Shown: piece by piece, positions 21,174 to 57,823 of the stretch
Layout: every line of letters starts with the position of its first letter
Position numbering within the stretch: the stretch's first letter is position 1
IMG/VR virus record: IMGVR_UViG_3300014208_000005
Span: 1 to 64,000 of that record
DNA: 64,000 nt
Origin: a virus
Direction: 5' to 3' (one strand)
Translations under genes and position numbers: made by a program
The notes under the pieces: model-generated
Database searches by the model: none
Told to the model about the DNA's origin: nothing
The model's input: only the letters and a program-made list of their open reading frames with translations

Positions 21174-21194
21174 AACCGAGGTCAAATTTTTTAG

Positions 21195-21227
21195 AAAAGG
21201 GGTTAGCTATTAAACTAACCCCTTTTT
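21195..21227. terminator. Bidirectional rho-independent terminator between the convergent blocks
   Basis: AAAAGGGGTTAG-ctattaaa-CTAACCCCTTTT perfect stem with A/T tails on both sides. Confidence 0.9.
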
Positions 21228-22532: not shown

Positions 22533-22555
22533 TTTGACTTGTTTTTCTGACCTGT

Positions 22556-22617
22556 GACGCACGATCTTTTAAAAGTTGACATGTAGTGTCACTCTTAAGA
22601 CCGTGTTCCACAGCGTC
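22556..22617 (-). promoter_or_regulatory. Long stem-loop in the 5' leader of the RNA ligase gene
   Basis: Minus strand cacggtctt-aagagtgaca-ctaca-tgtcaactttt-aa-aagatcgtg, closed by gacgc/gcgtc. Confidence 0.55.
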
Positions 22618-22623
22618 TTGTTT

Positions 22624-29144: not shown

Positions 29145-29181
29145 AAAAAAGACAGGAGTTCATAAACTTAGAAATCCTGTC
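29145..29181 (-). terminator. Rho-independent terminator after ferritin
   Basis: Minus strand GACAGGA...TCCTGTC followed by TTTTTT. Confidence 0.65.
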
Positions 29182-46270: not shown

Positions 46271-48127
46271 TTAATGATTCCAATTTTTCCCGATAACACT
46301 ATCTACCTTAATATCAAAGGATTTAATAATGAGTTTAATAGTTTCTTTCATCGTATTTTCTTGTATTATTTTCCATTCTTCAGCAAAATTTTCTGTAGTT
46401 TCCGAAACAATTGAATCATGCACTGTTAGTAAAATTCTTACAGGGTAGCCATTCAGATCAATTTTTTCCTGTAAATTTATTAAACACTGCTTCAGAAGAT
46501 TTCCATTTGAGCTTTGAGGAACATAATTTTTAGCTGCTCTTTCTGTTTCTCCAATAGTTTTAAAATTGTTTGGGTCTAAGTTTGGAAACCAGCGAATTCT
46601 TCTGTAATAGGGATCACTGCGTATTCTTCCATTCTCAACTGCGGTTTTGGCTAATAAGTTTAAAAACTCTTTTACTTTGGGAACTACAGCAAAGAATTGG
46701 TTTATTATTTTCTTAGCCTCTAAAGGAGTTGTTTGTAAAACGTCACTCAGTTTAAATTCAGATAAACCGTAAGACAACCCGAATGAAATGGTTTTAGAAA
46801 CGTAACGATAAGTTAAATCAGGTTTCATTGGAAATGGATCTCTAACCTTCTCTATTGGAATCTTAAAAACTTTTGAACAAAGTTCTGCATGAAGGTCCTT
46901 GCCGGATTTAAAAATTTCCAGCCATAGAGGATCCTGAGAATATTCTGCAATTAAAGCCAATTCAAACTGACCAACATCACTTGTGACTAAAACCTTACCT
47001 TTCTCAGCAATAATTGCACTCATGATTTTTTCAGCCAATTCTCCGTGTGACGGGAGCTGCTGGCAATTTGGGCGTGACATTGAAATCCGCGCTGAGCCTG
47101 AAAGTATTTGCCAAATTTCAGGATGGATTCTACCTGTTTTAGGATTAATAAAAGATAAGAATTCTCTGCCAAATGTTGTTGACAACTTTAAATTCTTTGA
47201 CAACAGAATTAATTCTTTTATGATACCGTGATTCTTTAAACGTTGTAATGTTTTATCTGAAACGTCATCAACAAGTATCCCTATTGTATTTAATATCTCT
47301 TTTTTCTGTGAATTTGATGCCCAATTAATAGATGTTAAATTCTCTTCAAAATTAAACAAATTTAATTGATTGTTAATTAAAGGTTGTAGTTTTACATTTG
47401 TTTTAGCCAATTCTACTACATGTTCATCTAATCTCTTAGTCGTTTCTGTAACAGTCTTTTCAGTTAATTCTGCAACTTCAATCCATTTCTCAGAATCAAT
47501 TAATAATCCTTCATAAGTCATTTTCATGAAAACTCTTGCGACTCTATTCTCCAACTCAAGAACCTTTCCTAATTCCCACTTATCAATTTCTTTTAACTGT
47601 TCTTTTCTTATCTGATGTAAATGTGCTACATCTTTGGCACAGTATTTAATAACTCTCTCTGTTAATCCTTGCCGATGGATAAGTCCTCTATCATCTTTAC
47701 TAATTTCAATTCCTAAATATTTCTTACTTACGTCATTCAATCCTAGGTTCCTCTTATCAGAGTCGAAACCAGCAGACAAAATACATTCAGCGAGAAATGA
47801 GTCATAGATGTTTTTAATGTTAATTCCATTATGATAAAGCCACTTACCGTCGAAAGCAAAATTATGATAAAGCGTCAACTTACTTTCCAATAAGTGTTTA
47901 ACTTGAATGATTGGAACGGTTAAAGCATCTATGACCCATTGGTTATCTTTATCACCTAATTGTAATGTTAATAGAGTGTTGTTAAAGACGTCAAAGCCTG
48001 TAGTCTCTGTATCGACGCCAATGCTATCTTTATTTTCCCAATACTCAAACAATTCATTTAGTTCTGATGATACTTTTATTTTGTTTTCATCAAACGACAA
48101 AGATTGTTTTGTAACAACATAAATCAT
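46271..48127 (-). CDS. polA: DNA polymerase family A with 3'-5' exonuclease
   Basis: ExoI DTETTG, ExoII HNFAFD, ExoIII YCAKD; motif A SDVGQFEL, motif B RYVSKTISFGLSYG, motif C TVHDS. Confidence 0.92.
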   Translation of the reverse strand: MIYVVTKQSLSFDENKIKVSSELNELFEYWENKDSIGVDTETTGFDVFNNTLLTLQLGDKDNQWVIDALTVPIIQVKHLLESKLTLYHNFAFDGKWLYHNGINIKNIYDSFLAECILSAGFDSDKRNLGLNDVSKKYLGIEISKDDRGLIHRQGLTERVIKYCAKDVAHLHQIRKEQLKEIDKWELGKVLELENRVARVFMKMTYEGLLIDSEKWIEVAELTEKTVTETTKRLDEHVVELAKTNVKLQPLINNQLNLFNFEENLTSINWASNSQKKEILNTIGILVDDVSDKTLQRLKNHGIIKELILLSKNLKLSTTFGREFLSFINPKTGRIHPEIWQILSGSARISMSRPNCQQLPSHGELAEKIMSAIIAEKGKVLVTSDVGQFELALIAEYSQDPLWLEIFKSGKDLHAELCSKVFKIPIEKVRDPFPMKPDLTYRYVSKTISFGLSYGLSEFKLSDVLQTTPLEAKKIINQFFAVVPKVKEFLNLLAKTAVENGRIRSDPYYRRIRWFPNLDPNNFKTIGETERAAKNYVPQSSNGNLLKQCLINLQEKIDLNGYPVRILLTVHDSIVSETTENFAEEWKIIQENTMKETIKLIIKSFDIKVDSVIGKNWNH

Positions 48128-48693
48128 TTTCCTTTATAAAGTTTAATAATCTCTTCCATTTCATCATTACAAAGAGCAAAGGATGGAAATTTACTATCGT
48201 AAAGGCCATCAAAAGCAAGGTTTGTAACGTTGAGTTTTAGGGTATTCTTAAGAATTTCAATAAATGCTAATGATTCCGTCATTGTCAGTTTTCTTTTGTC
48301 AATTGTAATCTCATGTTTATCATTTATTGTCAATCTCATTTCATCATGTTTAAACTTAAGATTGCTATTCATGATTTCATAAACCCTATCTACTTTAGGT
48401 CTCTTTACAACCGGCTTTTCAACTGTTACTGGTTCTAAGCAGAAATACGGAATGTTAAACATACCTCTTGATGGATGTTGCATATGTATTCCAAATTGCA
48501 TCGACATAAGTAGAGAATCAGTTATTGTTAAAACTTCACCAATCATATCTGCTATTCTTAGGTCAACACTGCATGCACACCCATTTTCTCCAGTAACAAA
48601 ATTCCGTGTAATTCTTACCTTATCTCCATCTTTAATCTTATTAAGCTCAATCCATTTCTGTTGTAACTTAACAAATATGTCTGTTTGTGTCAT
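48124..48693 (-). CDS. KWIELN-family paralog 1
   Basis: MTQTDIFVKLQQKWIELNKIKDGDKVRITR...PYFCLEPV. Confidence 0.7.
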   Translation of the reverse strand: MTQTDIFVKLQQKWIELNKIKDGDKVRITRNFVTGENGCACSVDLRIADMIGEVLTITDSLLMSMQFGIHMQHPSRGMFNIPYFCLEPVTVEKPVVKRPKVDRVYEIMNSNLKFKHDEMRLTINDKHEITIDKRKLTMTESLAFIEILKNTLKLNVTNLAFDGLYDSKFPSFALCNDEMEEIIKLYKGK

Positions 48694-49235
48694 TTTACTA
48701 ATTTTTTGTAAGCATTAACTATTTGACTTGCTTCGTCTTTTGTTAACAGAGTATTATTATCTTGATATGGATTTGAGAATCCTATGTGAAGTAAATCGGT
48801 CTTTAAGAAATGTGTGAGTGTTTCAACAAATTCTTTAGCATTTGTTTTGTTTAGTTTGACTCCATCAACAAAACTTATTGTTCCACTCTCACTAATTATT
48901 ACGGTTAACTCTCCGTGCTTAAACGTTCTACTAGACGAACAGATTGAAACTTTTCTCATTTTAACCGTTGGTTTTCTTACAGTAACAGGTTCTAAAACAA
49001 AGTAAGGATAGAAAAATCTATTTGATAAGAGTATTCCGTATCCATTAGGGTTCGATAAGCCTTTAATTTTTAAAGTTTTGTTTTTAGTATCATTCATTGG
49101 TTTACCCCAAGGCATTGCCCAACCATTTTCATGGCTTTTGGAAATCCTTAGAATTTTTACATTATCACCAATTTTTATTTTATTAAGCTCTATCCATTTC
49201 TTTTCGAGGGCTATGTAAATGTTGTTTTCTGTCAT
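48690..49235 (-). CDS. KWIELN-family paralog 2
   Basis: LEKKWIELNKIKIGDNVKILR...PYFVLEPV. Confidence 0.7.
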   Translation of the reverse strand: MTENNIYIALEKKWIELNKIKIGDNVKILRISKSHENGWAMPWGKPMNDTKNKTLKIKGLSNPNGYGILLSNRFFYPYFVLEPVTVRKPTVKMRKVSICSSSRTFKHGELTVIISESGTISFVDGVKLNKTNAKEFVETLTHFLKTDLLHIGFSNPYQDNNTLLTKDEASQIVNAYKKLVK

Positions 49236-49248
49236 TGTTTATGTATTA

Positions 49249-49288
49249 AAAAAATGAAAATTAGGGCACCATATTTCAGATGCCCTAA
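49249..49288 (-). terminator. Terminator-like hairpin
   Basis: Minus strand TTAGGGCA-tctgaaatatgg-TGCCCTAA followed by ttttcattttt. Confidence 0.6.
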
Positions 49289-49295
49289 CTTAAAG

Positions 49296-49757
49296 CTAAG
49301 ATACCAGCTTTTTAATTTCAGCGATGTGTTCACGTGTGATAGCACTTCCTTCAACCGTAATGTTGAAAGAGTAAATACCGAACATCGAAGACAGGTCTTC
49401 AAAAGCTTTAATAGCCTTCTTAGCGTCAGTCTTAGTTAATTTACAACACCCACATTGGATTGTTGTTCCTTCAGCCATTACTTCTCTTCCTGCGCCAATA
49501 GCAACCGTTTTAGGTTTATCTGGCATGATTTCAATTGCAAAATAAGGAACATTTGCCCCGTTTGTTACAATGGTATTAGCTCTGATTTCCAGAACCTCAA
49601 ATTCTCTTCCAACATAGCTGTTAACAACTGCACCAATTCCACATCCTTGTTCACCGCTAACCCAATTCCTAGTAATTTTTACTGTGTTACCTGCTTTTAA
49701 TCCCGTGATTTTCACGAATTCTTTTTGCATTTCTGCGTAGATCTCTTGTGTCGTCAT
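49296..49757 (-). CDS. KWIELN-family paralog 3 (divergent)
   Basis: MTTQEIYAEMQKEFVKITGLKAGNTVKITR...PYFAIE. Confidence 0.7.
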   Translation of the reverse strand: MTTQEIYAEMQKEFVKITGLKAGNTVKITRNWVSGEQGCGIGAVVNSYVGREFEVLEIRANTIVTNGANVPYFAIEIMPDKPKTVAIGAGREVMAEGTTIQCGCCKLTKTDAKKAIKAFEDLSSMFGIYSFNITVEGSAITREHIAEIKKLVS

Positions 49758-49769
49758 GACTTTTTAATT

Positions 49770-49964
49770 TTAATTGTTAATAATTGATTTTGAAATTTCA
49801 AACTTGATTTTATTTTGTGTTAATAATGATTTAAATAATGTAATTGCATCTTTGTCTTTAGTTCTTATTGTTGCTGGTTCTCTGATATGAACTTCAAACA
49901 GTTCATCTGTTTTATCCATTTTCAACGCTTTGCGGTTGCCTGGATCTTCAAATATGGATTTCAT
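49770..49964 (-). CDS. Hypothetical protein
   Basis: 64-aa coupled ORF. Confidence 0.5.
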   Translation of the reverse strand: MKSIFEDPGNRKALKMDKTDELFEVHIREPATIRTKDKDAITLFKSLLTQNKIKFEISKSIINN

Positions 49965-50449
49965 TTCTTAATAAGTTCAAATTTGTCAGCATTATCACCT
50001 GCAATCTTATCAAATTCTTCTTGTGTTATCTTTTTAAGATCTGATACTAAAACAGGATAGGTGTAAAGATTACCATCTTCCAAACAAACTAATATTGCTG
50101 ATTGATTTGTACTTCCTGATTGTGTAGATTTGGCTAAAATGTAAGTGTACTTTTTGCTAGAAAACCTCTGTCCCATTGAGTAAAATACTTCTTTCTTAAC
50201 AGGTTCTAAACAGAAGTAAGGAAGGATTGGTCCAGATTTAAGGTTAATACCACAGTCCATATTATTTTCTAATTTGTTGTCAATCGTGAAGGTTCTTCCC
50301 GTGTAATCTATGTCATTAAAGTGTGAGGTGCATCCACCTTCTCCTTCCTTAAATATTCTAATGACTCTTACTTTATCTCCATTTTTAACATTGTTTAACT
50401 CAATCCACTTTTGCTGTAATTTTACGAAAATTTCTTGTTGTGTTGTCAT
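49961..50449 (-). CDS. KWIELN-family paralog 4
   Basis: LQQKWIELNNVKNGDKVRVIR...PYFCLEPV. Confidence 0.7.
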   Translation of the reverse strand: MTTQQEIFVKLQQKWIELNNVKNGDKVRVIRIFKEGEGGCTSHFNDIDYTGRTFTIDNKLENNMDCGINLKSGPILPYFCLEPVKKEVFYSMGQRFSSKKYTYILAKSTQSGSTNQSAILVCLEDGNLYTYPVLVSDLKKITQEEFDKIAGDNADKFELIKK

Positions 50450-50676
50450 AATTTTTTACCGTTTTTAATGATTAATTTACCTGAATAATATGCTTTGACG
50501 ATTCCGTCATAAATGTTTACTGGATTTGACGCTAATGTTTCGATTAAAATCATTGCATCATCCAGTGTCTGTACTTTGTCGTAAGTCAAGGTTGTCCGAA
50601 AGTCCTTCAGATGAGATCGGTTTAAAAGATACACTGTCAACTTCTTTAAATTTGAGTTCTTTTTTTTCTTTACCAT
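50446..50676 (-). CDS. Hypothetical protein
   Basis: 76-aa ORF. Confidence 0.45.
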   Translation of the reverse strand: MVKKKKNSNLKKLTVYLLNRSHLKDFRTTLTYDKVQTLDDAMILIETLASNPVNIYDGIVKAYYSGKLIIKNGKKL

Positions 50677-50842
50677 AACATGTTTCTTTTAAGTGAGTGA
50701 TGAGCGATTGATGCTTATTTTTAAAGGAGAGAAATTCAACGCCTGTAAAACCTTGCGGCAAATAGTAATTGATTTCTCTCCTGCCCCTACTAACTAAAAC
50801 TGTAATAACAACATTATCAATTTCTTTGGTTATTGATTTCAT
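50558..50842 (-). CDS. Hypothetical protein
   Basis: 94-aa ORF overlapping the next gene. Confidence 0.4.
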   Translation of the reverse strand: MKSITKEIDNVVITVLVSRGRREINYYLPQGFTGVEFLSFKNKHQSLITHLKETCYGKEKKELKFKEVDSVSFKPISSEGLSDNLDLRQSTDTG

Positions 50843-50844
50843 TG

Positions 50845-51552
50845 TTATGTGATTAATTTAAATTCATTTATGTGTATGCTAAATAACGTATTTAGCTGTT
50901 TCAATGGAATTTTTTGGTAATCCCAACATTCAACTCCAATTGACCACGATTCTCCGGCAACACCATTATTTCCATCATTTAGTTGAATCAGGTGTAACCT
51001 ATCACCTCTACCGCTGTCTGAAGTGTGAACTTTCGCCAAAACATATTCAACTCCTTTTCTTGAGAATCTGCTTCCAATCTTGTAAAACTTTTCTTCTTCA
51101 ACTTCAACTTTTTCAAGGACGAAATATGGATAGTACAGACTTTCTTTTGTAGATATTTCCTCCTCGATTTTATTAACAGTAAGAACCTTACCAATAAACT
51201 TATCCATTTCTCGTACCCAATAACCATTCCATCCGTTTTCAAAACTTTCGGCTTTCCTTAAAACCCTAACCTTATCCCCAACTTTAATATTGTTGAGTTG
51301 AATCCATTTATCATGTAGCTGTTTATGTATTTCTTGTTTTGTCATTGGTTTTTCTTTTATTAATTTCACAAATCCATTAGTTAATAAAGCAATGGATTTT
51401 TGGTTAACAACCACATTCCAAGGAGCTTGGATTATTCCAGGAATTCCTTTGTACCGATTATTAGACTTGTCACAGGTAGCAGCATCCCAATTTACCAATT
51501 CACCTTCATGTTTAGTAAAATTTTCTACGGTTATTTCTAATAGTTTTGACAT
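50845..51552 (-). CDS. KWIELN-family paralog 5 (domain internal, from Met at 51345)
   Basis: MTKQEIHKQLHDKWIQLNNIKVGDKVRVLR...PYFVLEKV. Confidence 0.7.
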   Translation of the reverse strand: MSKLLEITVENFTKHEGELVNWDAATCDKSNNRYKGIPGIIQAPWNVVVNQKSIALLTNGFVKLIKEKPMTKQEIHKQLHDKWIQLNNIKVGDKVRVLRKAESFENGWNGYWVREMDKFIGKVLTVNKIEEEISTKESLYYPYFVLEKVEVEEEKFYKIGSRFSRKGVEYVLAKVHTSDSGRGDRLHLIQLNDGNNGVAGESWSIGVECWDYQKIPLKQLNTLFSIHINEFKLIT

Positions 51553-51595
51553 AATACTGTTTTTGTTTAAAGTGTGTTTTTTTATTTGTTAATTC

Positions 51596-51768
51596 TTATC
51601 AGCCAATCCTGCTTACAAATTTCTTTTCCGGAAATTTATCACATAGCAATGATTATTACTAAATAAATAAAGCAGGAATAAAGAACATTAAGGCTGATAA
51701 AAATAAAGATTGGGGTAAGGGTGTAAAATTATGAAAAAACAAAAACACCCTCAACTCCCCATATCTTT
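51596..51768 (-). ncRNA. Putative structured intergenic RNA (long hairpin plus multi-branch domain)
   Basis: Complementary pairs aaagat/atcttt, tgggg/cccca, agggtgt/acaccct; ttatcagcc/ggctgataa, tcctgctt/aagcagga, tagtaat/attgcta, aaatttc/gaaattt. Confidence 0.55.
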
Positions 51769-51780
51769 AGTTAAGCCGTC

Positions 51781-52824
51781 TTAGACAGCTTCTATTTTTT
51801 TAATTGCTCTTTCGATGGTGTTAATATCACATTGCCCCAATGTCTTACTATTTGAAACAAATAAACACACTCCAAGCTCTTCTGCTTCTTTGAAAGTTAG
51901 TACTAGTTGTTTTAAACGCTCCAGTGAATACTCCCCAAAACCATCAATGTGTGTATTTTCTTTTGAAATAATAACGTCAAAAGCGTCGTGAGTACAATTT
52001 GCACTGTAAGAATAAATTCTAACAGGAATTTCTGTTACTTCTTCAACTTTCTCAAGACATTCAAATCTCCATGACCATCCGGAGTCTAGTAAGATACAAG
52101 GAGTATCATAGTCAATATTTGCTACGGTCATAACTTTTCCAGTGTAATCTGTCTGAAACTCTCTGAGAACCTTTACCTTACTCCCAACTTTAATGTCGTT
52201 TAATTCAATCCATTTCTTAAACAGTTGTTGATAAATTTCTTTTTGTGTCATAATTTTTGTTGTTTTAGGTTGAAAATACTTTTCATAGTATTTACAAAAT
52301 TGTTTGTAAGAATAGAATTTCTTGAATTTACTACTGTTTGTGCTACCACTTCCGTACATAAATCCTCTTGGATCATTAATTAAGATAATTGTATCTTCTT
52401 TGTTTGTTTTCCAGAAGTTAGATGGATTTATTACATAATTTGAACGATCTTCAAGCCAGTGTCCTTCCATCCTATTAACTACACTCATCGCTTCTTCCAA
52501 TGTTTTAACTGTAACAGCAAACATTTCTCCTTCCTTTGGTAATAAATCTTCTGGTAGGTAAAGATCTTTAAACTGTTCTATTGAGATTATTTCACAATCA
52601 TGGGAATGTGCTGATTTGTAATAAGATATTTCGCAATGAGAGAAATTATTTGGTTTTCCTGAAGAATCATTTAGGTTGATTCCATGAGGTGTTGGATATC
52701 TTCCATAATAGAAAGTTTCATCGGCTGCTCCAGCATGAAATCCAAGTCTTCTCAAAATTTCTCTTACGTAGGTTTCATCTTCAGCAGAATGACATTCAAC
52801 TACGTGTGATTTATTATTTGTCAT
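51781..52824 (-). CDS. Multi-module protein containing KWIELN-family domain (paralog 6, from Met at 52251)
   Basis: MTQKEIYQQLFKKWIELNDIKVGSKVKVLR...FECLEKV. Confidence 0.7.
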   Translation of the reverse strand: MTNNKSHVVECHSAEDETYVREILRRLGFHAGAADETFYYGRYPTPHGINLNDSSGKPNNFSHCEISYYKSAHSHDCEIISIEQFKDLYLPEDLLPKEGEMFAVTVKTLEEAMSVVNRMEGHWLEDRSNYVINPSNFWKTNKEDTIILINDPRGFMYGSGSTNSSKFKKFYSYKQFCKYYEKYFQPKTTKIMTQKEIYQQLFKKWIELNDIKVGSKVKVLREFQTDYTGKVMTVANIDYDTPCILLDSGWSWRFECLEKVEEVTEIPVRIYSYSANCTHDAFDVIISKENTHIDGFGEYSLERLKQLVLTFKEAEELGVCLFVSNSKTLGQCDINTIERAIKKIEAV

Positions 52825-52832
52825 AATTTTTA

Positions 52833-53138
52833 TTATTTATTGTTTCTAATTGTGTAAAGATATTTCAAATCATCATTTAAATTAACACGATACACATTTG
52901 AAAGTTTTAATATCGTGTCATAAACTGTGATGTAGTTAGCATCCGCGTTAATTAAGACTGAGTTATCTGGAAGGATAACCTCATAGTTTTGAGTAACTAT
53001 TTCTGATTTAGGTTCTTCCAGAGGTTGAAGTACGGATGGAGTTAATGCCCATCCAATAGCAATTCCAATAACAAATGCCATTGAAATGAAAATATTGTTA
53101 AATTTTTCTTTGAAAGACACATATTTTAGCTGCTTCAT
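52833..53138 (-). CDS. Single-pass membrane protein
   Basis: IFISMAFVIGIAIGWALT hydrophobic segment. Confidence 0.6.
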   Translation of the reverse strand: MKQLKYVSFKEKFNNIFISMAFVIGIAIGWALTPSVLQPLEEPKSEIVTQNYEVILPDNSVLINADANYITVYDTILKLSNVYRVNLNDDLKYLYTIRNNK

Positions 53139-53163
53139 GTTTTAAAGTTTTAAATTGTTAAAA

Positions 53164-53278
53164 AAGAAACTCCCTTTTCTAATTAGAACTAGCTATTGTT
53201 TCAGTGTAACATCTTGCTAACTTTCGGCTACGAATTTCACGCATGTTACATCTTAATTAGAAAAAGAAAGAGTTTCTT
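53164..53278 (-). ncRNA. Putative structured intergenic RNA / extended terminator
   Basis: aagaaactc/gagtttctt, ttttctaatta/taattagaaaa and tgtaacat/atgttaca nested stems; followed by a T-run on the minus strand. Confidence 0.55.
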
Positions 53279-53285
53279 ATTTCTT

Positions 53286-53504
53286 TTATGCTTTTACAGG
53301 TTTTAAGATGTTTACAGGAAATTCTCCAGATTTAATTAACATTATGTCAGCTTGAATTGCAGCTTCTCTTTCAGTTGAGAAAGAATGACTCCTGTTACCT
53401 TTAACTTCAGCGTAAAACAGTTCCTTAAATCCTTTAGTAGTGTAATAAGCCTGTTTTTGGATGAAGTGATAGGTACGTTTAGTTAATTTTGGTAATGCTC
53501 TCAT
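53286..53504 (-). CDS. Small AP2-like DNA-binding protein
   Basis: SFSTEREAAIQADIMLIKSGEFPVNILK resembles the AP2-domain C-terminus. Confidence 0.5.
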   Translation of the reverse strand: MRALPKLTKRTYHFIQKQAYYTTKGFKELFYAEVKGNRSHSFSTEREAAIQADIMLIKSGEFPVNILKPVKA

Positions 53505-53506
53505 AG

Positions 53507-53653
53507 CTAGTAGCGTATTTCTTTCATGTACTGATGTCTTCCACCACCGTAAGCTTCAGGACAGTGTTTAGATGACACACACGACGACGTTGAGATGACA
53601 AATGCAAACAGTAAGGCTGTGAGCAAAATGTAAATTGAGATGAGCTTTTTCAT
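53507..53653 (-). CDS. 48-aa putative lipoprotein (not in ORF track)
   Basis: MKKLISIYILLTALLFAFVISTSSC|VSSKHCPEAYGGGRHQYMKEIRY; signal peptide with lipobox-like TSSC. Confidence 0.6.
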   Translation of the reverse strand: MKKLISIYILLTALLFAFVISTSSCVSSKHCPEAYGGGRHQYMKEIRY

Positions 53654-53685
53654 GGTTTTTAAGTTTTTTATTGTTTTTAATGGTT

Positions 53686-54027
53686 TTATTCTACATTATA
53701 AGCAAGAGCTGTAATAGGTTCGAGAATTTTCCAGACATCTTTCCACGAGTATTTATGATAGAGTTGAAGACCTAAGCTTACCCCTTCACCTGCTCTGTAA
53801 TAGGCTACCTTTTTAACAAGCATTTGAATGATGCCTGAATTGATGAACATTTCAGAATTAGCGTGACCATTAGTATTAAAAATCATTTGTTCTGGGTTAT
53901 ATTTTGTTCCACTGTAAAATGCCCCGAGCTGCATTAGTCTGTTGTTGACTTTTTTGAAGTATTCCTTATCACTAAAATCGTGACAAATATTCTGTTCAAC
54001 AATTGTTATTTTTATTGTTTTATTCAT
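53686..54027 (-). CDS. Hypothetical protein
   Basis: 113-aa ORF with A-rich leader. Confidence 0.55.
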   Translation of the reverse strand: MNKTIKITIVEQNICHDFSDKEYFKKVNNRLMQLGAFYSGTKYNPEQMIFNTNGHANSEMFINSGIIQMLVKKVAYYRAGEGVSLGLQLYHKYSWKDVWKILEPITALAYNVE

Positions 54028-54054
54028 GATTTCTAAGTTTTAAAATTGTTTGTA

Positions 54055-54110
54055 AAAATAAAAAATAAACAGCAGGTCTGTCTTAACGACACGTTTGAAA
54101 CCTGCTGTTT
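54055..54110 (-). terminator. Terminator-like hairpin with structured loop
   Basis: AAACAGCAGGT...ACCTGCTGTTT 11-bp stem followed by attttttattttt on the minus strand. Confidence 0.65.
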
Positions 54111-54139
54111 AAAAGAATGCGCTTACTAGAGAAGCTCCT

Positions 54140-54322
54140 TTAATGCTTTACTCTTATTTTCCTCACCATCTGCTTCCTCATTCTGCGGTTAGGTTGGATT
54201 TGAATTTTACCCTCCTTAATCGCCTGTTGCAGTTTATTATCCTCTTCAGATAATGGGTTGTCACAAAATGGTGGGATTTCACGAATGTGTTTCTGAGAAA
54301 TGACTTTCTTTCTTGATTTCAT
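54140..54322 (-). CDS. Basic hypothetical protein
   Basis: 60 aa; PNRRMRK. Confidence 0.5.
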   Translation of the reverse strand: MKSRKKVISQKHIREIPPFCDNPLSEEDNKLQQAIKEGKIQIQPNRRMRKQMVRKIRVKH

Positions 54323-54714
54323 AATTTTAGGTTTTTAGGTGATATTTAATTTTTACATTCTGGAACAACGTTTGTGTACGTTTGACCGTCTTCAGAGGAG
54401 TAAGTAAGTTCTGTTGTTTGGTTTTTAGTTACTAACTTTCTCAGTAAACCACATTTAACACACTTAGCTTGTATTCCTACTTTGTGTCCTCCCCACGACA
54501 TCCAACTATGTCTGGTTTTATTATTTGTGATTCTCATGAAATAGTTGTTTGCGTGTGATAATGTTGGCTGGAATGTTGTAAACCTTCTGTTTTTCAGACT
54601 TAGTTTTCCAGCCGTCACCTAATAGCGAACGCATTTGCATTCTGTATTCAATCTTAGCTGCTTTTACAGGATTTTCTTCTCTGATTACTGTTAAAGTCAT
54701 TTTACACCTCCTTT

Positions 54715-54930
54715 TTAAAACGTTAAGACTTTTGTTAAATGATACCCGCAATGATTTGTAAGGAAGTCAATCTTTCCACATGAACCATTACCGAGGTCAT
54801 TCTTCCTTGTTTTACAATCTTTACTTAAGACTCTGATGAGTTTTGAATTGGAATCAATTCTGATGTCATTCTTTTTGGAGAGTGCGTTAAGCACTTCATC
54901 CACCGTGTGTTGATGTTTACGTGTTTTCAT
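54715..54930 (-). CDS. Conserved small phage protein
   Basis: DLGNGSCGKIDFL motif; A-rich leader. Confidence 0.55.
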   Translation of the reverse strand: MKTRKHQHTVDEVLNALSKKNDIRIDSNSKLIRVLSKDCKTRKNDLGNGSCGKIDFLTNHCGYHLTKVLTF

Positions 54931-54935
54931 GATTT

Positions 54936-55109
54936 TTAAAATTTAAATAAGTGAGTAAAACTGTAAGCTATGCAATAAATTGCGATAAGCTTTAAGACTA
55001 ATTCGTAAAGTCTTTGCCATATTGCTTTGGTTGTCCATCTTGAGACTAAAACCCATGACGATAAAGCAATGACTAAGATGTAAAATAAAAATGTTGTTAA
55101 GTTCATCAT
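54936..55109 (-). CDS. 57-aa two-helix membrane protein (not in ORF track)
   Basis: MMNLTTFLFYILVIALSSWVLVSRWTTKAIWQRLYELVLKLIAIYCIAYSFTHLFKF; ATGA-coupled. Confidence 0.5.
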   Translation of the reverse strand: MMNLTTFLFYILVIALSSWVLVSRWTTKAIWQRLYELVLKLIAIYCIAYSFTHLFKF

Positions 55110-55256
55110 TCAAAGTTTAATATTGTGTCACATTTAATTGAATCAATTGTAATGATTTGTTCTTGTGTTACAATTGTGGCCGAGACTTTTGATTTGGATT
55201 TATTGTCAGGAGTAAAACTGTAACACAAGAACACTAAGAATGCTAATAATATGTGG

Positions 55257-55349
55257 TTACCCATCAAGTTCATATCCATCAACCAGATAAGCCATGAGTA
55301 ATACGGCACAGATAAGAATAGTAATACCTGAAATTATGATTATTGCCAT
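55257..55349 (-). CDS. 30-aa membrane peptide (not in ORF track)
   Basis: MAIIIISGITILICAVLLMAYLVDGYELDG. Confidence 0.45.
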   Translation of the reverse strand: MAIIIISGITILICAVLLMAYLVDGYELDG

Positions 55350-55482
55350 AACTTTAAAGTTTAAGATTCGTTTGAAATTTCTTTAAGAACAGCTATTGCT
55401 TCGTAAATTGCTTTACAAGCAGCACAATCATGGTCTTCGCAGAGTTGGGTTTCCAGTAAGGTAATGACATCTTGGATTGTTT

Positions 55483-55890
55483 TCATGTTCTTGGAGGATC
55501 AAAGAATAAGTGACCATGTATTTTTGTACCGCTATCATCATACCACCCATCTCTTAAATAAATTTGAGATCCGTGATTTGTAGGGTTAATATTGTTTGAT
55601 AATTCTTCTTTAAAGACAGAAAATGCCCATTTATCATTGATGTGACATTCTGAATTGGTTCCTCCAGCCACAATCTTTGTAACAATGTTTTTCTTTACTT
55701 CTGGTTTTGGCTCGTAAGGACGCAGAACTATTTTTTCACTGTATCTACATTCAAATCCCTTACCTTCTGGACATCCTTTATCTCCATTATTCGCAAAGAA
55801 ACATCCTTTACAGGACATATTCTCAACTTCAGGCACAGCTTCAAATTCTACGCCTAATATTTTTATTTTTTCACCTAATTTTAGTATCAT
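55483..55890 (-). CDS. Cys-rich hypothetical protein
   Basis: SCKGCFF...CPEG..FEC. Confidence 0.55.
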   Translation of the reverse strand: MILKLGEKIKILGVEFEAVPEVENMSCKGCFFANNGDKGCPEGKGFECRYSEKIVLRPYEPKPEVKKNIVTKIVAGGTNSECHINDKWAFSVFKEELSNNINPTNHGSQIYLRDGWYDDSGTKIHGHLFFDPPRT

Positions 55891-55895
55891 GATTT

Positions 55896-56120
55896 TTAAG
55901 ATTTAATGGTTAATACCGATGCTTTTTTACGTTCGTGATTATATTTAAAGAGGTAATCCGGATGAGTTAAGTTAATAAGTTCATCCACATTAACGCGGTC
56001 AAATTTAAACTTATCCCAAAGGACATATTTAGGCACTATTTCGTTCGTCATTTTACGAACAATATCAAAGAACATTAGCTTTGAGTGAAATTCGTTGAAT
56101 GTTGTTTCTGGGATTATCAT
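55896..56120 (-). CDS. Hypothetical protein
   Basis: 74-aa coupled ORF. Confidence 0.5.
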   Translation of the reverse strand: MIIPETTFNEFHSKLMFFDIVRKMTNEIVPKYVLWDKFKFDRVNVDELINLTHPDYLFKYNHERKKASVLTIKS

Positions 56121-57780: not shown

Positions 57781-57823
57781 AAAAACAAGGAAAGCAAGAT
57801 TCCCCGATTATGGAGAACCTTGC
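57781..57823 (-). terminator. Terminator after gene 57850..58272
   Basis: Minus strand gcaaggttctcc-ataatc-ggggaatcttgc followed by tttccttgtttttt. Confidence 0.6.

Follow-up and report, generated by a model that had tools for sequence, protein, structure and literature searches.

A putative terminator hairpin with a large, anti-start-like loop in the early gene block of a divergent crAss-like phage

Genes surrounding the hairpin-containing spacer

The window analyzed in this study covers the initial 64 kb of a viral record of 93,940 bp with 123-bp terminal repeats. Its layout is that of the crAss-like phages, with giant plus-strand open reading frames (ORFs) of 3,625 and 1,665 residues encoding virion proteins and a long minus-strand block extending from 21.4 to 59.6 kb. 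This block contains the gene for a family A DNA polymerase (positions 46271 to 48127) that is 26 to 30% identical to the polymerases of crAss001, cr111_1, and IAS virus. The phage is a divergent member of the crAss-like group, and its host would belong to the Bacteroidota. Boxes of the Bacteroidota −7 promoter type (TATCTTTG) are present upstream of the plus-strand late genes.

The structure under study, designated hairpin 1, is located in a 228-bp spacer of what appears to be the early and replication gene region of the minus-strand block. Upstream of the hairpin, a 347-aa ORF (51781 to 52824, minus strand) encodes an N-terminal domain followed by a paralogue module and terminates at a TAA codon (51783 to 51781). 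Downstream, a 235-aa ORF (50845 to 51552, minus strand) is preceded by a 40-nt leader that is A-rich and predicted to be unstructured. Both ORFs belong to a paralogue array sharing a 96-nt module, present in five copies with 60 to 74% DNA identity. The module matches SH3_15 at a subthreshold score, as does the 235-aa member of the array. In both genes, the onset of the module coincides with an in-frame ATG (positions 52251 and 51346 for the 347-aa and 235-aa genes, respectively, minus strand) preceded by a start-like context, which suggests gene fusion with a retained start codon or internal initiation.

Structure of hairpin 1 and resemblance to a terminator

The first-pass annotation had described a GC-rich interrupted stem with a 20-nt loop at positions 51705 to 51768. 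Our folding analysis confirmed this structure, the best fold being one pair wider (51704 to 51769, minus strand). The 21-bp stem comprises segments of 7, 5, and 9 pairs separated by bulges of 1 and 3 nt. The minus-strand RNA extending from 51780 to 51695 has a minimum free energy (MFE) of −26.5 kcal/mol (z score, −4.95), and none of 200 dinucleotide shuffles was as stable. The ΔG of the element was also computed as −25.7, with the stem beginning 11 nt past the stop codon. The fold of the plus strand is weaker (−22.6 kcal/mol). The pattern of the inner stem occurs once in the window, versus zero expected occurrences. The loop (51725 to 51744, minus strand) is U-rich (15 of 20 residues) and, as annotated, is perfectly complementary to a start-like sequence, which we verified on the plus strand. 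The ATG of that sequence (position 51731) indeed opens an ORF of only 17 codons (51731 to 51784, plus strand), with its start inside the loop and its body inside the 3′ arm, and this ORF is probably not a gene. Searches with the Rfam 15 covariance models returned no match at the gathering score in the window, and the region from 51450 to 51900 gave only chance-level scores, far below threshold.

An A-rich run precedes the stem, and a U-tract (51689 to 51703, minus strand) abuts its 3′ side. The tract begins with five U residues followed by A and U, with 6 U among the first 8 nt. Its tail score is −4.85 on a TransTermHP-style measure, which ranks it among the best 0.4% of genome positions. Since this extra U-run is present only at the 3′ side of the minus strand, hairpin 1 is strand specific, as an RNA signal should be. 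Hairpin 1 therefore shares with Rho-independent terminators a stable GC-rich stem-loop on the transcribed strand, an immediate 3′ U-tract, and a location at the end of a gene, in the orientation of that gene and 11 nt beyond the TAA codon of the 347-aa ORF. It departs from them by the size of the loop, which is 20 nt versus 3 to 8 nt (up to ~13 nt in common finders). A terminator scan restricted to loops of 3 to 8 nt did not report hairpin 1, because its loop exceeds the size accepted by the finders.

About eight gene-oriented elements composed of a hairpin and a U-tail follow stop codons in the genome. Textbook cases are located at 21194 to 21227 (plus strand), 49258 to 49291 (minus strand), and 57794 to 57823 (minus strand). 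Other members of the set are located after a stop codon at 78404 to 78435 (plus strand), at 29151 to 29181 (minus strand; 7-bp stem, 17-nt loop, and U6 tail), at 54066 to 54111 (minus strand; apical region of ~20 nt), and at 53164 to 53278 (minus strand; a 115-nt long-stem structure of −31.5 kcal/mol with an apical region of ~100 nt). The last element encloses an inner hairpin, ends with a U-run, and is located directly ahead of the leader of a 101-aa gene. Long-loop terminators as a habit of the lineage were unsupported in 80 distantly related crAss-like loci, since an excess of T-rich tails was found only for loops of 3 to 8 nt (7.2% versus a background of 4.1%), loops of 13 to 20 nt being at background (4.1% in both cases).

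On balance, we consider it somewhat probable that hairpin 1, with its atypically large loop, is a terminator or attenuator of the Rho-independent type, or the hairpin at the 3′ end of the 347-aa gene's transcript. Structure, position, orientation, tail, and sibling elements were directly seen, and from these we infer that transcription may actually terminate at the U-tract. Hairpin 1 is real and, so far, does not rise above a known kind of element. Under this model, the GC-rich 21-bp stem would fold in the nascent RNA once the polymerase had moved past the stop codon, the U-tract following the stem would favor RNA release, and the hairpin would also shield the 3′ end of the mRNA. Should hairpin 1 act as a terminator and nothing more, it would help to delimit the transcription units of a very divergent crAss-like phage and would indicate that the punctuation hairpins of this phage can bear unusually large loops.

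Termination at this site cannot be complete, since no recognizable promoter separates hairpin 1 from the essential genes located downstream. Over the 8 kb of early and replication genes from 47864 to 56000, the minus strand contains no TAnnTTTG box. The polymerase gene and the other downstream replication genes therefore need read-through or an unrecognized promoter, and this stretch is probably transcribed by read-through or from a promoter of a non-host type. Four to five of the elements composed of a hairpin and a U-tail are located in or beside the promoterless stretch. In the crAss-like phage phi14:2, the virion polymerase transcribes the early genes, for which no promoter motif is recognizable, and the host polymerase transcribes the middle and late genes (10.1101/2020.03.07.982082).

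Between hairpin 1 and the gene that follows, the remainder of the spacer is predicted to form a multibranched RNA fold, designated domain 2 (51590 to 51704, minus strand), with an MFE of −34.3 kcal/mol (z score, −5.74). None of 200 shuffles was as stable. The outer stem of domain 2 (13 bp) associates the U-tract of hairpin 1, as the 5′ strand, with a complement located downstream. Because this stem uses the U-tract of the terminator, domain 2 would form in read-through RNA only. The strength of the fold suggests that the region beyond the U-tract is transcribed and that a read-through RNA exists and refolds. Some polymerases would probably read through hairpin 1, as essential replication genes are located downstream with no recognizable promoter in between, and the U-tract of the resulting RNA would be recruited into the pairing of the adjacent domain 2.

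Complementarity to the start regions of phage genes

The plus-strand ATG at position 51731 scores 5.5 bits on a start-context matrix derived from the genome's own genes, which outscores 61% of the true starts and ranks among the best 0.9% of the 3,211 ATGs that are not starts. The 10-nt core complement of the loop, AAAATTATGA, has seven copies in the genome versus ~1.2 expected. In three genes, with starts at 50449, 52824, and 54322, it matches the start context exactly, which bears out the earlier proposal that phage genes have the same start context as the loop complement. A further copy is found at 52251, where the paralogue module has its internal start. These four copies are the ones on the minus strand, and each coincides with a start or start-like site at most 2.6 kb from hairpin 1. 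In the start region of the 347-aa gene (52815 to 52834, minus strand), 10 nt are exactly complementary to the loop, and 16 of 20 in the ATG register. The internal in-frame start-like site (52242 to 52261, minus strand), at the boundary of the paralogue module, contains the same 10-mer. The start region of a 162-aa paralogue gene (50440 to 50459, minus strand) is complementary at 17 of 20 positions in the ATG register and matches the loop region at 23 of 29 positions overall (P = 0.007 versus shuffles), and that of a 60-aa gene (54313 to 54332, minus strand) has 12 to 13 nt exactly complementary to the loop.

The mean pairing energy of the loop with phage starts was better than that of 99% of the shuffled loops (P, ~0.01 to 0.02), and 30 start regions reached −8 kcal/mol with the loop versus 15.6 expected (P = 0.017). 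The duplexes are AU-rich and weak (−10 to −12 kcal/mol). Of the composition-matched shuffled loops, 14% had an exact anti-start match at least as long as the best one of the native loop (12 nt; P = 0.14). The excess of complementarity is therefore test dependent, with P values of 0.01 to 0.017 by duplex energy versus 0.14 by longest exact match, in tests that were designed post hoc, the matches having already been seen. Pairing of a loop with a linear RNA is beyond the model of RNAcofold, and the output of that program was left unused for this purpose. Overall, the anti-start signal is suggestive, not established. An apparent excess of the U5-CAU motif among spacers was dropped as an argument, the other copies being located inside unlisted ORFs, where they encode Lys-Phe-Phe. 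Inverted duplication of the 5′ end of a paralogue was considered as the origin of the loop and left no sign, because the local alignments to neighboring gene starts stop at a start-like core of 14 to 29 nt.

The large loops of other spacers were analyzed in the same manner. The first 11 bases of the loop of the element at 29151 to 29181 (minus strand) are perfectly complementary to positions −13 to −3 in the leader of a 113-aa gene (53686 to 54027) located 25 kb away (P, ~0.04 against shuffled loops). Two other large loops displayed no anti-start signal (P = 0.13 and 0.66).

Domain 2 contains a 21-nt segment (51632 to 51652, minus strand) that is complementary at 19 of 21 positions (90%) to the start region of a 94-aa gene (50839 to 50859), with a predicted duplex energy of −18.8 kcal/mol. 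When 37 spacers across the genome were screened on both strands against 122 start regions, this was the highest-scoring anti-start match. The 228-nt spacer supplied 4 of the best 15 matches of this screen. Upon shuffling of the spacer, the probability of a maximum score of at least 15 was 0.013, and two targets with scores of at least 13 were obtained in none of 300 shuffles. The four targets of the spacer with scores of at least 11 are not independent, because one start context is common to all of them. One 19/21 pair per 9 kb, somewhere in the genome, is close to the chance expectation, and the 51632-to-51652 segment is buried in local helices of the predicted domain 2 fold. The two 21-nt arms form an inverted repeat (50839 to 50859 and 51632 to 51652) that flanks the whole 235-aa cistron, one arm being the start region of the 94-aa gene. 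The repeat could reflect long-range RNA pairing, the trace of a cassette, or chance, a DNA-level origin being possible since the arms flank the entire cistron.

Alternative functions, known systems, and relatives

These matches raise the question of a dual function, in which the single-stranded loop of a terminator hairpin would pair with neighboring starts sharing the AAAAUUAUGA context and lower their translation, domain 2 adding a second anti-start element. The targets of the loop would be the 347-aa gene and its internal start, the 162-aa paralogue, and the 60-aa gene, and that of domain 2 would be the 94-aa gene. Either a stable 3′ fragment or the mRNA that includes the hairpin would carry out this pairing, and the target could be on the same polycistronic RNA (in cis) or on another molecule (in trans). 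We regard this as possible but rather unlikely. It draws on the overrepresentation of AAAATTATGA and the clustering of its minus-strand copies at start or start-like sites, on the rank of the loop complement among non-start ATGs, on the pairing energies, on the presence in the same spacer of the best anti-start match of the genome, and on the second large loop, with its antisense match in the 113-aa gene leader. However, the loop is of low complexity and its longest exact match is no better than those of shuffles, its duplexes are weak, the seed segment of domain 2 is buried in predicted helices, the two further large loops were null, the tests were post hoc with a 19/21 pair per 9 kb close to chance, and the minus strand has no promoter box of its own for such an RNA between 47864 and 56000. 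The earlier proposal of an antisense small RNA (sRNA) is supported in part. Its anatomy holds, and the excess of complementarity varies with the test. The proposal overlooked the stop codon 11 nt ahead of the stem and the strong U-tract behind it, and no promoter box specific to such an RNA was found. If hairpin 1 is a terminator, the match between its large loop and gene starts would reflect a U-rich composition and a single CAU, with no functional role implied. Counting against this reading, several tests put the anti-start content of the spacer above chance.

A fuller version of the pairing scheme is a little more doubtful still. The 228-nt spacer would be a two-domain regulatory RNA built on a terminator, its loop and the 21-nt stretch of domain 2 being antisense to five nearby sites of the same operon, with the loop at 29151 to 29181 belonging to the same system. 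Processing of the transcript is improbable as the main function, hairpin 1 and domain 2 being cut or bound in the read-through transcript by an RNase III-type factor of the host or phage that would set mRNA ends and half-lives without termination. The near-coaxial 21-bp helix with bulges has the size of an RNase III substrate, the two abutting domains (z scores of about −5 and −5.7) occupy 180 of the 228 nt, other strongly structured spacers are found in the operon (53164 to 53278 and 22533 to 22623), and long read-through transcripts are needed with no recognizable internal promoters. However, the size criterion is permissive and the rules for RNase III sites are loose, so the fit carries little weight, and a processing site would not require a strong oriented U-tract, which is a sign of termination instead. 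It is highly improbable that the function resides in the plus strand or in the DNA, as a 17-aa gene or antisense transcript expressed from the boxes at 51541 to 51573 or as an inverted repeat with an A-tract spacer acting as a protein-binding or origin-type site. The context of the ATG at 51731, better than that of most true starts, and the two plus-strand upstream matches, a TAGTTTTG box (51541 to 51548) and a TTGACA-16-TAAAGT match (51546 to 51573), are in keeping with such a function. Against it, promoter-like matches of this type are no commoner than in shuffles, the 17-codon ORF has its body within the stem and is without detectable relatives, the plus-strand RNA folds less stably, the asymmetry of the U-tail suits the minus strand, and the hairpin 1 site is not repeated elsewhere, as regards a DNA site.

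Comparison with known systems places hairpin 1 closest to the Rho-independent terminators of Bacteroidota and their phages, with which it shares the GC-rich stem after a stop codon, the preceding A-rich run, the U-tract, and membership in a genome-wide set. It differs from these terminators by a loop of 20 rather than 3 to 8 nt, by two bulges, and by a U-tract that doubles as a strand of a second structure. In phage lambda, the 3′-end hairpin of sib/tI adopts a different, larger structure according to whether transcription stops there or continues, and in the early mRNA of phage T7, structured intercistronic hairpins cleaved by RNase III set the mRNA ends. Hairpin 1 has no sequence similarity to the lambda or T7 sites, and its extended structure is located beside the stem rather than extending it.

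Precedents for pairing at start regions are also available. The terminator loop of OxyS kisses the start region of fhlA in E. coli (discussed in PMC11979758). The likeness to hairpin 1 is an exposed terminator loop complementary to a translation initiation region. OxyS is an sRNA in its own right, dependent on Hfq, whose loops are short and make two kissing contacts, whereas hairpin 1 has no separate transcript or chaperone assigned to it, its loop is much larger, and its pairing is AU-rich. The mRNAs of Bacteroidetes lack Shine-Dalgarno (SD) sequences and use A-rich leaders instead, and the sRNA GibS of Bacteroides thetaiotaomicron represses translation by pairing at SD-less start regions (PMC7366714). 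The same bacterium produces sRNAs derived from untranslated regions and from within operons, some of which share a terminator with the parental mRNA (PMC7366714). GibS resembles the scheme considered here by its occurrence in an SD-less phylum and by regulation through pairing at A-rich start regions, but it is expressed from a promoter of its own, has a conserved 5′ seed that is single stranded, and is unrelated in sequence to hairpin 1. In phage phi14:2, two intergenic noncoding RNAs outnumber most mRNAs and have no known role (10.1101/2020.03.07.982082). GibS, OxyS-fhlA, and the phi14:2 RNAs were taken as precedents for a dual function. Bacteroidota have A-rich unstructured start sites and their riboregulation is little known. 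Pairing of the loop with gene starts, if real, would provide an example of phage-encoded RNA control of translation in this phylum. If the spacer were a two-domain regulatory RNA, RNA-RNA pairing would let a crAss-like phage tune or silence the translation of its own early genes in hosts from a phylum that has neither SD sequences nor Hfq.

Relatives of the locus were sought by several routes. DNA searches and tblastn with both flanking proteins against a phage collection detected nothing, as did scans of viral contigs seeded with the 347-aa protein, the 235-aa protein, the polymerase, or the alignment of the 347-aa protein with P0002, the only homologue of that protein found. The latter alignment also gave no match in metagenome contigs. 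The closest polymerases are 76% (P0004), 73%, and 69% identical to that of the window phage. A polymerase alignment led to the 80 crAss-like loci mentioned above, with identities of at most 53% (58% over one partial match), none of which carried homologues of the genes surrounding hairpin 1. A pattern scan for the same stem with any loop was negative in viral contigs, and its 25 matches in metagenome contigs were rejected as unrelated palindromes.

A scan of genome contigs identified a 4,688-bp contig (L107; DYTA01000095.1) encoding a crAss-like polymerase 73% identical to that of the window phage. L107 ends 1.2 kb short of the position of hairpin 1, and its upstream genes already differ. It is binned in a metagenome-assembled genome labeled Nitrosospira multiformis, the rest of which contains nothing related, and is probably a mis-binned phage fragment. 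A suspected tRNA in this contig was not confirmed. L107 also contains an ORF with Gly/Ser/Tyr-rich repeats (138 to 440). In the window, several small early-region genes share a leader of ~20 nt directly 5′ of the ATG (49754 to 49773, 54024 to 54043, 54927 to 54946, and 55887 to 55906). This shared leader may be a conserved translation or promoter signal, and a similar ~20-nt leader is present in L107 (1445 to 1470), ahead of a gene unrelated to the leader genes of the window.
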